From NCBI GenBank assembly GCA_965243025.1, contig CBDETY010000003.1, positions 5,472,001 to 5,536,000 on the forward strand: a stretch of 64,000 nt of DNA, written 5' to 3'. The position numbers and the translations under genes were made by a program. Positions 29,791-36,980 of this stretch are shown here, in pieces. Below the pieces are notes generated by a model. The model saw only the letters and a program-made list of their open reading frames with translations, searched no databases and was not told the DNA's origin. Every line of letters begins with the position of its first letter. Position 1 is the stretch's first letter. This stretch comes from Candidatus Latescibacterota bacterium. GTDB lineage: Bacteria; Latescibacterota; UBA2968; UBA8231.

Positions 29791-29847
29791 GCCCACGAAA
29801 TAGCGGACGGGCGTCCGAAATGCCGTGGATCTCCGATATTTCGTAGT
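29791..29847 (+). promoter_or_regulatory. Upstream activator sequence for a sigma54 bEBP (copy 1)
   Basis: Three quasi-palindromes CGAAATAGCG, CGAAATGCCG, CGATATTTCG; closely similar to 36488-36545. Confidence 0.7.
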
Positions 29848-29923
29848 CCTGCCTTCAAGACCCGGCTTTCTCTGAAAATTGCAACCTGTTGTTAATTAGT
29901 GGTTTTTATGATTTTTCATCGAT

Positions 29924-29939
29924 GGGCACGGAAGTTGCG
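29924..29939 (+). promoter_or_regulatory. Sigma54 -24/-12 promoter upstream of the kinase operon
   Basis: GGGCACGGAAGTTGCG versus consensus TGGCACGNNNNTTGCW; AT-rich IHF-like box at 29882-29910. Confidence 0.75.
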
Positions 29940-30093
29940 TTCCCCCGAGGAAGGGCTGTCGCCGCACCGCTGCGTAAATCGAAACTTCGACGCTCGATGG
30001 CAAGCGTTCGGACAATGAACGACTACCGCGATCTCTCCGAGTAGAGGAGATGGAACCACGAGAGAAGCAGGGCCCGGCCCTGGGGAGTCATCC

Positions 30094-33000
30094 GTGAATC
30101 AGAAGATCCGCAGGGACCTTGCCCTCCTGGCAACCGCCTTCGCCCTGGCCGGGGCGGCCGGCGCCAGCCCCCACCACGTCCTCGAGGTCGAGCGCTTCGC
30201 GGCCCCGCCCGTGCTTGACGGGGAGTTCACGGACTGGAGCGGCGCCCACTGGACCCGGTTCTATCCCGGCGCCCCGCAGATGTCGGGGTTCAACGAGCTG
30301 AAGGACGACGGCGTGCCGGAACCGCCCGGCACCGCCGCAACCGCGGCCGACCTGTCGGGCCGCTTCTCGATCCGCTGGGACGAAGACTGGATCTATCTCG
30401 CCGCCGACGTGACCGACAACGTCCACGACGTCTCCGGCGGCACCAGCCTGACCTGGTACCTGAAGGACGGGATAGCCCTGTACCTCGACGTCCCGGACGA
30501 CGGCGACGGCGGCGAGTGGATACCGGGAGACCATGCCTTCGCCTTCGTCGCCGATCCCTCCGGTCCTCAGGACGGGCGCTGGTGGCGGCGCGGGGAAGCG
30601 CGAGGAAGCGAGGAGTCCCCTGCTCCTCCGGAGACGCGCCTGGCGGTCGCCCTCAGCGAGACGGGATACCGCATCGAGGCGGCGGTTCCGATGGGGCCGC
30701 TGACGGAACGCACCCCGGAGTGGAGGCCCCCGTTCGCCGGGCGCTCGGCCGGTTTCTTCCTGCTCGCCGCCGACCCGGACGGAGGTGCGGAGAGGGTCAG
30801 CCAGATCCTGTACGGCGGGGACGACGACAACGACGCCAACTGGGCGACCCTGCGGTTCGTCGAGGAGCGCCGCCCTTCCCCGGAAAGCACCGGTCCGGGA
30901 CCCGTGCTCGGTCGCCTTGCCGTTCCCCTGTCGCCGGAACGCGCCGGGGAGTTCCCCGGGGAGTTCGACGCCGCCCTGCTTCCGCTCCTCGAGCGGCGCG
31001 GTTTTCAGGCGGTGGAGGGCCCGGCCGCCACCGGCGCGGATTCATGGTTCACCTGTTTCTTCACGGCTCCCGGCACCACCCAACTGCGGCAATGGTGGGC
31101 GGACCTCGAGACCGATCCGGCATGGATCGCCGCGAAGGTCGCCCTGGCACGGTACGGCGCCCGCGGAAACGGGCAGGATTCCTCTGCCGCCCCGCGGGCG
31201 CTGACCGCCTGGATGCACCTCTACTCCTCCCCCGCCGGCGAGGGGACCCTCAGGGAGCTGGGGCCGGGCAACCCCCGGAACATCGAGCCGGTCACCGTGC
31301 GCGCCGGCGCCGGCGTCCGCAGCGGAAACTGGTGGAACCTCTCAGTGCCGGACGGAGTTTCGCAGACCGGGGAGATCCTTCAGGACGAGGAGGGGGCCCT
31401 GTGGCTGGCGACGGATCTCGGGGTCAGCCGCTTCGACGGCGTCCACGTCACCGGATACGAGGTCTCGGAAATGCTGCACGACGGATTCGTCAACGGGATC
31501 CACCGCGACCGGAGGGGGAACCTCTGGGTGGCGCGCGGCATGCGGACCTCCGATGGAAAGGGGGGCGGGCTGAGCCGCTTCGACGGCGTCAGCTGGCGCG
31601 ACTTCCACGTCGAGGACGGGCTGCCGTACAACTACCACAGCGCCGTCGCCGAGGACGCGGCCGGCCGCCTGTGGTTCGCGGCCGGGCGGGGCGTGAGCAG
31701 CCTCGCGGGGAACCGCCTGACCAGCTATACCCCGGAACATGGGTTGCCCGCCCCGTTTGTGCTCGACCTGCTGTGCACCAGGGACGGGGCGGTGTGGTTG
31801 GCGACCGCCGGCGGGGTGTCCCGTTTCGACGGCTCCACCTTCACCAACTACACCGGGGCGGACGGCCTGCCCGGCGGCGTCCAGGCCATCGCCGAGGACA
31901 GCTCCGGCAGGTTGTGGGTGGCCGGGGACGGGGGGGTCGCATACCGGGACGGGGATGGGTTCCGCCGCTTCGAAACAGGCGGCCTCGAATGGGTCACCGC
32001 GGTCGAGGAGGACCGCTTCGGCAACCTGTGGTTCGCATCGAAGGCCGGTCTGCATCGATACGACGGGGAGGTGGTGCGGTCCATGGGAAAGGAAGACGGC
32101 CTGCTGAACCCCTTCCTCTACTCCGTCATGGAAGACAGGGAGGGCAACCTGTGGGTGGGAACCCACGAAGGCCTTAGCCGGTATGACGGGGAACTGGTGA
32201 AAACCTTTTCCGCGGCCGACGGACTTCCCTCCGACCTCGTGATCAGGATGGAGGAGGATCCGCAGGGGCGGATCTGTCTGGCGACCCTGGGAGACGGACT
32301 GGTGCGCTTCGACGGCCGCAGGTTCGAGACCTTCACCACCGCCGACGGCCTGCCGAGCGACACGCTTCTCGCCCTGATGACGGACCGGTCCGGGACCCTC
32401 TGGGTCGGCACCATGGCCGGCCTCGCCGCCTTCGACGGCGCCTCGTTCCGCGCCTTCACGACCGCCGACGGGCTCTCGGACAACGAGATCTGGCGCATCG
32501 CCGAGGACCCCGGCGGGAAGATCTGGGTCAACACCCGCTGGGGCGTGAACTACAGCGACGGCGAGCGCTTCAGGCCCCTCGAAGGGAGGTCGCTGCCCGG
32601 CAAGCTGCAGCTGATTGAGGGAGGTTTCGCCGACGCCGGGGGAAACCTCTGGTTCACCGGGCAACAGCAGGGCCAGGGCGGGCTGTTCCGCTTCGACGGG
32701 AAGGTATTCCGCAAGTTTCCCCTCGCCGGCAGCTTCGCCGACTCGCCGCTGGCCATGCTGGCCGACGAAGGGGGCCTGTGGCTGGGCACGGGGAACGGCC
32801 TCGTGCGCTTCGACGGCGAGAGCTTCGAGACCTGGACGACCCGCGACGGCCTGACCGGCAAAAGCATCCACGCCATGACCCGGGACGGGGCCGGCCATCT
32901 CTGGCTGGCCTCGTTCGGAGGGGGGATCGACCGCTTCGACGGCGAGGTCTTTCAGAACCTCCACCGTCCCGACGGCCTGCCGAGGGACTCGGCGAACGGC

Positions 33001-34890
33001 ATCCTCGTGGCCGGGGACGGCTCGGTCTGGATCGCGACGCTGAACGGCATCACCCGCTACCGCCCGGGGCGCCTGCCTCCGCCGGTCCGCATCACCGAGG
33101 TCGTCGCCGACCGGTCCTACCGGCCGGAAGAGGAGATATCCGTGCCCTCGTCGCAGGAGCTGATCGCGTTCGAATTCCGGGGCACGAGCCTCAGGGGACG
33201 GCCCGACCGCATCCTCTACCTGTACCGCCTGCTCGGCCGCGAGCAGGAGTGGCGGCAGACGCGGGAGACCCGGGTCGAGTACGCCGGCCTGCCCCGGGGG
33301 GACTACACCTTCGAGGTGGTGGCCGTCGACGCCGACCTCAACCGCTCCCGGAACCCGGCGGCGGCCGCCCTCGAGGTGCGGTTTCCCTACGACCAGCTGG
33401 CGTGGATCCTGTCGATCGGCGCCGGACTTCTCCTGGTTGCGGGGTTCACCCTTGTCCATTTCCGCAACTATCACCGCCTCGAGGAGGCGCGCACCGCGGC
33501 CGAGGCCGCCAACGAGGCCAAGAGCGCCTTCCTCGCCAACATGAGCCACGAGCTGCGGACCCCCCTCAACGGCATCCTCGGCTACGCGCAGATCCTCGGC
33601 CGGGACCGCGGGCTTTCGCGCCCACAGCGGGAGGGGGTCGACACCATCCGGCGCTCCGGAGAGCACCTGCTGACCCTGATCGACGACATCCTCGACCTGT
33701 CGAGGATCGAGGCCCACAAGCTCGAGCTGGAAACCGGGGAGTTCGACCTGGGGGAATTCGTCGAGACCCTGGCGGACCCGGTGCGCATGCGCGCCGGGCA
33801 GAAAGGGCTGGAGTTCACGTGCCGGCTCGACCCCGGCCTGCCGGCGGGGGTCAGGGGGGACGAGCGCAGGCTCAGGCAGATCCTTCTCAACCTGCTGGGC
33901 AACGCCGTGAAGTTCACGGACGAGGGATCGGTGCGACTCGCGGTGGAGCGCGGCGCCGCCGGCGACGGGCGCGTCCGCTTCAGCATCGAGGATACCGGGG
34001 TGGGGATACCGGAGAGCGCGCGGGAGAAGATCTTCCAGCCGTTCGAGCAGCTGACCGAGCCGGGAGCCGTGGTCGAGGGCACGGGGTTGGGGCTGGCGAT
34101 TACCAGGGAGCTGGTCGAGCTGATGGGGGGCGGGCTCGAGGTGGAGAGCCGGGCGGGGAAGGGAAGCACCTTCAGGGTGGACCTGCCCCTGGCCGCGGTC
34201 CCGGGGTGGGAGCCGGCGGAGAGGGGACCCGAGGCGGCTCCCACCGGGTACAACGGGAAACGCCTGAAGATCCTGGTCGCCGATGACCGTTCGGAGAACC
34301 GGGTCCTGCTGGCGAACATGCTGCAGCCGCTGGGATTCGAGGTGGTCGAGGCAGCGGACGGCGAAGAGTGCCTCGCCAGGCTCGGGGATAACCGCATCGA
34401 CCTGCTGCTGGTCGACCTCGTCATGCCCGGAGTCGACGGCTTCGAGGTCGCGCGGCGGGTGCGAGCTTCGGAGGAATGGCGCCACCTGCCGGTCATCGCC
34501 GTCTCGGCCAGCGTCTACGAGGAGCACCAGCAGCAGAGCGTGGAGGCCGGGTGCAGCGACTTTCTCGCCAAGCCCGTCGACGAGCGGCTGTTGTGGAAAA
34601 AGCTCGGGGAGCACCTCGGTCTCGAATGGACCGGCGCCAGGGAGAAGGAAGTGGAGGGCGCATCCGAAGGGGTGGTCGCCCCGCCCGGGGAGGAGGCGGC
34701 CGCGCTCCGCGAGGCGGCCCGCAGGGGAGACATCGTCACCGTGCGCGCCGAAATCGACCGGATCGCCGCACTGGGAGGCGAGTACGCCGCTTTTGCGCAA
34801 AGGGCGGGTGAAATGGCGCGGAACTTCGACCTCAGCGGAATCGTCGAGATGGTCGATTGCGCAAACCCGAAACAGGACTCGGTCTCGTGA
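30094..34890 (+). CDS. Hybrid sensor histidine kinase: CBM9/DOMON-like domain, Reg_prop propellers, Y_Y_Y, TM, HisKA, HATPase, REC
   Basis: Signal peptide; [11 protein letters not shown]...[52 protein letters not shown]. Confidence 0.95.
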
Positions 34891-36719: not shown

Positions 36720-36735
36720 TGGCACACCGGTTGCA
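36720..36735 (+). promoter_or_regulatory. Sigma54 -24/-12 promoter
   Basis: TGGCACACCGGTTGCA, near-perfect consensus. Confidence 0.85.
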
Positions 36736-36799
36736 ATACCTGGGGCAGTCACCTTAAACCCCGCGATCCGGAAGGATCGCAAACCAAAGGAGACGCACC

Positions 36800-36898
36800 A
36801 TGAAAGCCCGTTACTTCGCATCCGGAATCGCCCTCTTCGTCGTCAGCATCACCTGGGTCTTCGGCGCGTTTCACTACGTCGCCAGCATTACCGCCTAG
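36800..36898 (+). CDS. 32-aa single-pass membrane peptide MKARYFASGIALFVVSITWVFGAFHYVASITA
   Basis: AAGGAG RBS 7 nt upstream, ATG..TAG, GC-ending codons, located between a sigma54 promoter and a terminator; below the ORF-track cut-off. Confidence 0.75.
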   Translation: MKARYFASGIALFVVSITWVFGAFHYVASITA

Positions 36899-36925
36899 CA
36901 GCAGCGTCCAAAGAGGGAAGCGGCC

Positions 36926-36980
36926 AGGCGCCCGGTGTCTGCGAGACCGATGTCTCCGGCACCGGGCGCCTTTTGTTTTT
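36926..36980 (+). terminator. Intrinsic terminator
   Basis: AGGCGCCCGGTGTC...GGCACCGGGCGCCT followed by TTTGTTTT. Confidence 0.8.

Follow-up and report, generated by a model that had tools for sequence, protein, structure and literature searches.

The sigma-54-dependent activator PspF, which lacks a receiver domain and is under the control of PspA, drives the monocistronic gene pspG with the help of integration host factor (IHF), and the product of this gene is a small integral membrane effector of about 80 aa with two helices. SafA is, like MgrB, a small membrane protein that modulates a sensor kinase, and ZraP, the accessory protein of the ZraPSR system of E. coli, is about 140 aa long. According to PMC8249747, ZraR binds beside its own operon and activates both this operon and the small accessory gene from sigma-54 promoters, and its main high-affinity target lies there. 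The glmY promoter, located beside glrK-glrR, comprises three GlrR sites, two IHF sites and a sigma-54 promoter (PMC3045617), and MgrB inhibits PhoQ (PMC12719787). Here we describe a locus of a Candidatus Latescibacterota bacterium (assembly GCA_965243025.1, contig CBDETY010000003.1, positions 5,472,001 to 5,536,000; this stretch of 64 kb from a 6.78-Mb contig is hereafter called the window), in which the genes of a 1598-aa hybrid sensor kinase and a 537-aa NtrC-type activator are followed by a gene for a 32-residue membrane peptide. We consider it rather probable that these genes form a sigma-54 two-component circuit that controls its own operon and the peptide, and that the peptide acts by binding another membrane protein.

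The locus combines features that are known from these systems with others that are not found in them. As in ZraPSR, an NtrC-family regulator would control its own operon and an accessory gene via sigma-54 promoters. ZraP, however, is a soluble periplasmic protein with chaperone activity (PMC8249747), whereas the peptide is a 32-aa transmembrane (TM) helix. Moreover, zraP and zraSR diverge from a single shared spacer, while the present site block exists in two copies 6.7 kb apart. With PhoQ/PhoP-MgrB the locus shares the combination of a two-component system and a very small single-pass membrane protein; MgrB acts on the kinase, and by analogy the peptide may do so here. That system differs in its sigma-70 promoters, its OmpR-type regulators and the position of the small-protein genes, which are not adjacent to it, and MgrB-type proteins have no sequence relation to the peptide (no Pfam or NCBIfam match). 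With PspF-pspG, the likeness lies in a monocistronic unit for a small membrane protein under sigma-54 and IHF control, for which the present unit is a candidate. In common with GlrK/GlrR (QseE/QseF) and glmY, a short monocistronic unit with three activator sites, IHF or IHF-like sites and a -24/-12 promoter stands beside the two-component genes. However, the RNA glmY is non-coding and its gene precedes glrK; the unit described here lies downstream and carries a conserved open reading frame (ORF) with a Shine-Dalgarno (SD) sequence, and the GlrR site consensus is TGTC-N10-GACA as opposed to CGAAAT. No paper describing the peptide, or a sigma-54 circuit with such a peptide, was found in full-text literature searches; in PMC3162934 the name Gemmatimonadetes occurs solely among the references. 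An initial annotation, made from the DNA letters alone, had called the circuit apparently undescribed. As far as searched, this holds for the peptide, which belongs to no described family (Pfam, NCBIfam), while the circuit follows the known pattern of sensor-controlled small membrane proteins.

On the plus strand, between 29.8 and 37.0 kb, the window (G+C content 64%) holds in order a control region, the kinase gene (30094..34890), the activator gene (34887..36500), a second control region, a 32-codon ORF and a terminator hairpin. All elements that the initial annotation had listed were located by inspection of the sequence, and the second control region indeed precedes a separate unit in which an SD sequence, the 32-codon ORF and a strong terminator follow in this order. 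The activator start had to be corrected: the gene had been read as a 547-aa ORF with a TTG start, and we assign it 537 aa from the GTG at 34887, the form found in the public protein set. This GTG overlaps the TGA of the kinase gene (GTGA), and the two genes are translationally coupled.

Pfam domains and structure matches give the kinase the order signal peptide, CBM9-like domain (CBM9_1, E 1e-08), Reg_prop propellers (many repeats, E 7.4e-40), Y_Y_Y, TM helix, HisKA, HATPase, receiver (REC) and tail, with a single hydrophobic TM helix at about residues 1102-1123. Its ectodomain matches 4a2l/4a2m in the PDB (E 5.7e-46) as well as the periplasmic sensor domains 3v9f and 3va6/3ott; 4a2l, 3v9f and 3va6 belong to glycan sensors of Bacteroides (B. 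thetaiotaomicron). The CBM9_1 match and the matches to Bacteroides-type hybrid sensor ectodomains make the carbohydrate-type ligand of the initial annotation plausible. Like the hybrid two-component systems (HTCS) of Bacteroides, which have a homologous periplasmic domain, the kinase carries TM helix, HisKA, HATPase and REC in one chain. In HTCS proteins an AraC-type output is fused to this chain, whereas here the output is a separate NtrC-type sigma-54 activator; the kinase also has the CBM9-like domain as an N-terminal addition, and the host phylum is not Bacteroidota. No helix-turn-helix (HTH) domain is among the six Pfam families of the kinase, and the roughly 95 residues after REC have no match. 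Lacking a fused DNA-binding domain, the kinase is therefore not a classical HTCS. The tail also contains no histidine, and no histidine phosphotransfer (HPt) domain is visible in it. A near-identical copy of the kinase is found in the public protein set (P0018), labelled Gemmatimonadota bacterium by one source.

The kinase tail (34606-34890, residues about 1505-1598) can be aligned as far as residues 1583-1595 with hybrid kinases encoded at many loci, in cyanobacteria and elsewhere, and those loci also encode a response regulator with a receiver resembling that of the activator. The shared tail and the similar receivers make the module look like one conserved kinase-regulator pair with varied outputs. 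A paralogue of the kinase ectodomain is encoded 4 kb upstream of the circuit (23967-26153, +); this 728-aa protein comprises Reg_prop and Y_Y_Y without a kinase part, is 33% identical over 420 residues, and also matches the unannotated kinase residues 270-330.

The domain content of the activator agrees with the initial annotation, as does that of the sensor kinase. It consists of a receiver (PF00072, E 4.8e-30), an AAA+ sigma-54 interaction domain (PF00158, E 8.3e-73) with GAFTGA at residue 285 of the 537-aa form, and a Fis-type HTH (HTH_8, PF02954, E 4.8e-05, 23.4 bits against a cut-off of 22). The protein stays below all 25 NCBIfam equivalog cut-offs for enhancer-binding proteins (AtoC, ZraR, GlrR, NtrC, PspF and others). 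AtoC is the best of them (417.6 versus 714 bits); the activator is thereby also set apart from ZraR (351.9 versus 760 bits), GlrR (296.4 versus 763 bits) and PspF.

The candidate enhancers of the two control regions were examined by motif counts and a target scan, both covering the window. The exact palindrome CGAAAT-N16-ATTTCG occurs twice (29816-29843 and 36514-36541), against 0.00 expected from 100 shuffles; with up to two mismatches there are 3 occurrences versus 1.7 expected, which is the chance level. Each palindrome is preceded by a third half-site, CGAAAT at 29796 (20 nt upstream) in the first cassette and CGGAAT at 36493 (21 nt upstream) in the second, where it overlaps the activator stop codon. 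The predicted upstream activator-binding region (29796..29843, +) thus contains three 10-nt elements, CGAAATAGCG and CGAAATGCCG in direct and CGATATTTCG in inverted orientation, with centre spacings of 20 and 18 nt. The predicted downstream region (36493..36541, +) contains CGGAATAGCG, CGAAATATCG and CGGTATTTCG. In both, the elements have the form CG(A/G)AATAnCG, two direct and one inverted, and they are part of a block common to both cassettes in which 47 of 58 aligned columns are identical, compared with 91 of 220 among the remaining ungapped columns. Two or more CGAAAT hexamers within 50 nt are found at three places in the window, namely both cassettes and an intragenic pair at 3811/3858; the scan for such clusters revealed no further enhancer-like cluster outside genes. 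A palindrome with two mismatches at 40452, upstream of a TonB-receptor operon, was considered as a third target and rejected, as it has no nearby -24/-12 promoter and belongs to the match class that occurs at chance level. Between elements 1 and 2 an inner palindrome was seen in each cassette, CGGACG-GG-CGTCCG (29804-29817) and CGGACC-CGG-GGTCCG (36501-36515); the two differ by a paired change that preserves palindromy.

Downstream of each palindrome lies a predicted sigma-54-type -24/-12 promoter, at 29924..29939 (+, GGGCACGGAAGTTGCG) for the kinase-activator operon and at 36720..36735 (+, TGGCACACCGGTTGCA) for the peptide unit. The second (TGGCAC-N5-TTGCA) is closer to the consensus than the first. 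Exact GGCAC-N5-TTGC occurs only at these two places in the window (29925 and 36721), both on the plus strand. With 0.59 expected and 10 of 100 shuffles reaching two, the count alone is not rare, so that its weight rests on the pairing with the palindromes. Correct spacing of the GG and GC doublets (TGGCAC-N5-TTGC) upstream of a gene on the same strand was likewise found at 29925 and 36721. The related GGCAT-N5-TTGC at 22395 was discarded as a promoter because it lies inside a gene on the opposite strand. Transcription of the peptide unit would start near 36746.

A third shared component is the sequence AACCTGYTGT, present four times in the window versus 0.10 expected: once in the first cassette, twice in the second, where the copies are mutually inverted, and once within a gene at 14619. 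The copy of the first cassette, AACCTGTTGT (29883-29892), is contained in an IHF-like box between enhancer and promoter (29882..29894, minus strand). In the second cassette the distal copy AACCTGCTGT is at 36588..36597 (minus strand), and the proximal copy, AACCTGCTGT on the plus strand at 36664-36673, is contained in an IHF-like box at 36663..36675 (minus strand). For scoring we used the IHF consensus WATCAANNNNTTR. The box of the first cassette has one mismatch to it (seven such matches in the whole window), and that of the second has two, a degree of match that is found 134 times in the window and is not significant alone. PMC3045617 gives the IHF consensus as WATCARXXXXTTR. Overall, the same cassette had been proposed to occur twice, and palindrome, AACCTGYTGT box and promoter are indeed present in both. 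The layout, however, is not identical, since the cassettes differ in box number and in spacing: 95.5 nt separate the palindrome centre from the -24 GG in the first cassette, as against 193.5 nt in the second. The duplicated predicted activator sites before two sigma-54-type promoters imply autoregulation together with a peptide target, as the initial annotation had suggested.

To compare this arrangement with other phyla, we used the best 80 activator loci among at least 593 stretches. The best activator matches among those listed were from a Nitrospiraceae metagenome-assembled genome (60% identity), Spirosoma terrae (58%) and Larkinella (57%). In Spirosoma (L061) and Larkinella (L002), a Reg_prop/Y_Y_Y hybrid kinase is encoded directly upstream of the activator, and the second helix of their HTH (LDVIPTTLESKMKKL) is almost identical to that of the activator described here. 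Repeats of CCCGAAATATC or CCTGAAAT, at a spacing of 19-20 nt, are present in these Bacteroidota loci some 85 nt upstream of TGGTAT-N5-TTGC or TGGCAT-N5-TTGA: Spirosoma has CCCGAAATATC twice at a spacing of 19 nt, with TGGTATAGGCTTTGC following after about 85 nt, and in Larkinella TCCTGAAAT repeats 20 nt apart precede TGGCATACGGCTTGA at the equivalent position. Two repeats are also present in the divergent region upstream of the kinase in both, where the promoter-like motifs have off-consensus spacing. A regular-expression search for two CCGAAAT within 45 nt found 2 of the best 80 loci, Spirosoma and, with an unrelated palindrome, L021. The Nitrospiraceae activator has a more diverged recognition helix, and its downstream sigma-54 promoter is followed by genes for a hydrophilic product of about 80 aa and a membrane protein of 200 aa. 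Activator homologues of another phylum thus carry repeats of the same type before sigma-54-like promoters, in agreement with the earlier proposal. The joint conservation of the CGAAAT motif and the recognition helix in different phyla is the strongest argument at hand for the elements as activator sites. The peptide itself does not accompany them: a translated search beside homologous activators, suggested initially, gave a best tblastn E of 0.44 and no match adjoining an activator in the best 80 loci. As the peptide is missing there and only three clusters of it were found (see below), it appears to be a lineage-restricted addition.

The operon behind these promoters in the two Bacteroidota loci (L061 12900-16440, L002 12140-15300) comprises genes for a TANGO2-like protein, for a 378-aa product that belongs to no known family, for a LysE exporter and for an alpha/beta hydrolase. 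In both Spirosoma and Larkinella, a gene for a YHS-like secreted protein is divergent from the kinase gene.

The 32-codon ORF of the second unit (36800..36898, +) encodes a predicted single-pass membrane protein (MKARYF...ASITA) and looks, by conservation, codon composition and SD sequence, like a real gene. The SD sequence AGGAG (36788..36792, +) stands 7 nt before the ATG at 36800, and AGGAG at 5-9 nt before an ATG is found at 24 places in the whole window. G+C by codon position is 0.45/0.45/0.82 in the peptide ORF, a pattern resembling that of neighbouring genes, and 0.70/0.50/0.90 in the kinase gene; surrounding intergenic DNA averages 0.55. The ORF is followed by a predicted intrinsic terminator (36926..36980, +), a hairpin of about 20 bp and then TTTTGTTTTT, which was identified by folding and is missed by a motif scan with a strict loop rule. 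Hairpin and UUUUGUUUUU together reach -47.5 kcal/mol (z -4.2), and 0 of 200 shuffles were as stable.

The exact peptide is present in a public protein collection, carried by roughly 48 contigs. Its cluster at 90% identity has 15 members, 14 variants of 32 aa and one 438-aa protein (P0009 cluster), which was dismissed as a long form since it has no detectable similarity and is probably a clustering artefact. Two further 32-aa variants fall into other clusters. A search of 1.84 billion representatives of all lengths (clusters at 50% identity) returned three matches: the cluster representative, a 70-aa call, which is the peptide with its leader read through, and a 50-aa call, whose last 32 residues, from an internal Met, are 69% identical to the peptide with 10 conservative changes and the same end. 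A search with the 50-aa relative returned only itself, and one with the 70-aa form among shorter proteins returned three clusters of 32 aa. The initial annotation had noted that the ORF might be the N-terminal stub of a longer gene in relatives. All 16 variants, however, have the same length of 32 aa, and none of the three all-length matches runs past the peptide C-terminus in this search; the ORF is therefore not such a stub.

Invariant in 16 aligned sequences are M1, A3, A7, S8, G9, I10, A11, L12, V15, T18, W19, F21, F24, H25, A28 and T31, the alignment leaving out P0045 and P0046, which change A11 and F21. In the 69% relative, the in-frame residues upstream of the peptide are unrelated to the leader of the window. 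The leader translation of the 70-aa call (97% relative) matches that of the window on both sides and differs over 8 codons, which by back-translation would correspond to a 1-nt deletion and a later 1-nt insertion, with the ORF free of indels. The stretches that encode the -24/-12 motif (AVAHRLQY) and the SD sequence (ANQRRRT) are unchanged in it. The 70-aa call also suggests indels within a leader hairpin (36763-36780) of a relative.

Peptide, kinase and activator appear to be linked beyond this genome. Contigs of 785577, 124392, 47732 and 8940 nt recur in the clusters of all three proteins, and one of 127162 nt in those of peptide and activator; the co-occurrence on an 8.9-kb contig argues for close linkage. 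The peptide has no Pfam family at E up to 10 and no NCBIfam family at E up to 1, and it falls outside the known small membrane protein families of both collections (MgrB, PmrR, YoaK, YncL, KdpF and others). Its best Protein Atlas neighbours scored 0.81, 0.81 and 0.80 and are leads only.

On the basis of these data, we propose the following circuit. A periplasmic ligand, by homology probably a glycan or oligosaccharide, would bind the ectodomain formed by the CBM9-like domain and the twin-propeller/Y_Y_Y part, upon which the kinase would phosphorylate the 537-aa regulator. As no HPt domain is visible, phosphotransfer would go directly from the HisKA histidine. The regulator would then bind the three CGAAATAnCG elements, about two helical turns apart, of both cassettes, and with DNA bending at the AACCTGYTGT box both -24/-12 promoters would be opened. 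This would result in positive autoregulation of sensor and regulator and in a monocistronic mRNA of about 235 nt that would be translated into the peptide. The latter would insert as one helix, with its N-terminus in the cytoplasm as suggested by Lys2/Arg4 and the positive-inside rule, and act by binding another membrane protein.

Several points weigh against this proposal. The kinase has a receiver but no HPt domain, which makes the phosphotransfer route uncertain, and the IHF-like match is weak in the second cassette, where the enhancer is also about 100 nt more distant from its promoter than in the first. At the best 80 loci, the Bacteroidota and Nitrospiraceae homologues drive ordinary operons without such a peptide, and in the bacterium studied here the peptide may be one target of many beyond the 64 kb. 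With regard to conservation, little can be learned about selection from the variants of the main cluster, which share at least 90% identity. ORF calls report intact frames only, so that frameshifted or stop-containing copies are invisible and the constant length of the variants is partly a matter of ascertainment. The linkage in other genomes rests on equal contig sizes and not on the DNA itself.

If the peptide does act through a partner, our first choice would be the TM and juxtamembrane region of its own sensor, with feedback like that of MgrB on PhoQ or ZraP on ZraS. We put this forward tentatively and by analogy; since the kinase, activator and peptide genes stay together, feedback on the sensor requires the fewest assumptions. 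An uncontrolled structure prediction for a complex between the peptide and a pair of kinase segments (residues 1085-1215) scored 0.00 and speaks neither for nor against such contact. We give a different membrane partner roughly the same likelihood. In particular, the peptide could be an effector that tunes a transporter, an enzyme or a respiratory complex, as AcrZ, MgtS and PmrR do, with the signal linked to envelope physiology; we regard this too as possible, with comparable reserve. According to PMC12719787, the partners of most small membrane proteins characterised so far are not sensors, and what the homologous systems control in Spirosoma and Larkinella are effector operons (TANGO2-like, LysE, alpha/beta hydrolase), not feedback elements. 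The peptide gene also has as neighbours the genes of a SusC-like TonB-dependent receptor and of the DUF4249 protein that partners it; their operon, however, is convergent and without an enhancer or -24/-12 promoter of its own, and no candidate partner was identified for an effector. That the peptide stays with kinase and activator even on the 8.9-kb contig is compatible with effector or feedback. A more far-reaching version of the feedback idea is that of a closed circuit, in which the entire regulon would be the circuit itself plus one TM peptide of a new family that docks on the sensor helix and sets the gain. It would have arisen recently in one lineage by copying of the operon enhancer before a new small gene and would be the sigma-54 counterpart of MgrB-PhoQ. 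In this full form we consider it rather unlikely.

The remaining readings appear less probable. The RNA could be the product, as a sigma-54-dependent small RNA (sRNA) beside two-component genes like glmY, with the ORF incidental or the RNA doubly functional. The architecture of glmY/glmZ, as given in PMC3045617, is similar in its three activator sites, IHF sites, sigma-54 promoter and short terminated transcript beside two-component genes, and the predicted transcript of about 235 nt folds more stably than shuffles (z -3.6) and has a 5' hairpin at 36763-36780 (7 bp, GCGAUCC-GGAA-GGAUCGC). This z-score, however, is owed mostly to the terminator, and between 29700 and 37100 no sRNA family of Rfam matched at E up to 10, the lone weak match being an unrelated long non-coding RNA model inside the kinase gene. 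Moreover, the ORF has an SD sequence at ideal spacing and coding-type third-position G+C (GC3), and even at 69% identity its length is unchanged and its substitutions are conservative and hydrophobic, in contrast to the diverged upstream part. These coding signatures make the RNA-only reading less likely, and we judge it improbable. The minimum-energy fold was seen to pair the SD region with the 5' end of the transcript. We judge it similarly improbable that the peptide perturbs the membrane as a factor of stress or dormancy, comparable to YohP or to type I toxins, produced in a burst upon firing of the sensor and acting on the bilayer without a specific partner. This would fit a product of 32 aa that is almost wholly hydrophobic and has no extramembrane domain; YohP-type small membrane proteins depolarise the membrane (PMC12719787), and the nearest language-model neighbours, with scores of 0.77-0.81 that provide leads only, are unnamed or stress-related small membrane proteins. 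Yet no antisense RNA or antitoxin feature was seen at the locus, the circuit is tied to a ligand sensor with no link to a general stress regulator, and the invariance of S8, G9, T18, W19 and H25 in all 16 aligned sequences suggests a specific helix-helix interface rather than bulk membrane action. Least of all do we expect the second cassette to be a duplicated relic of the operon control region, with the 32-codon ORF a chance frame without function. The 58-column block common to both cassettes and the restriction of the peptide family to a narrow clade, away from the nearest activator homologues, could be read in this way. A relic, however, would hardly have a promoter nearer to the consensus than the original, followed in proper order by SD sequence, ORF and strong terminator, with the ORF kept at the same length at 69% identity and a GC3 of 0.82; the AGGAG-ATG arrangement also has just the 24 placements mentioned above in the whole window.

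We therefore retain as the preferred reading a sigma-54 circuit with a small membrane protein that works through a membrane partner. Annotation routinely overlooks small membrane proteins, and the regulator is known for few of them. In the present case the sequence directly shows the regulator, its predicted sites and the promoter, which makes the locus a clean and testable example from a phylum that has been little studied. Should the peptide modulate its own sensor, MgrB-type feedback would extend to sigma-54 systems and to Bacteroides-like glycan sensors. The Bacteroidota homologues, with the same recognition helix and DNA motif and other targets, suggest that the module is re-wired by moving its enhancer.

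The surroundings of the circuit were also inspected. Convergent on the peptide terminator, a minus-strand operon (37038-40272) encodes the SusC-like TonB-dependent receptor (CarboxypepD_reg and Plug), which scores below the TIGR04056 cut-off, and the DUF4249 partner. The region upstream of this operon (40273-41000) has one CGAAATAC half-site and no -24/-12 promoter. Directly upstream of the circuit lies an 871-aa ORF (27134-29749, +) in which a cytochrome c assembly (CcsA-type) domain is confined to the last 200 residues and which may represent a fused ResB/CcsA-type protein; an alternative ORF in another frame (27636-28934) has a GC3 of 0.92, making this gene model doubtful. Between 40300 and 44900 no ORF passes the GC3 filter of 0.70, and within this region a weak radical-SAM match is found at 40658-41842 and a HAMP histidine kinase at 42751-44601.

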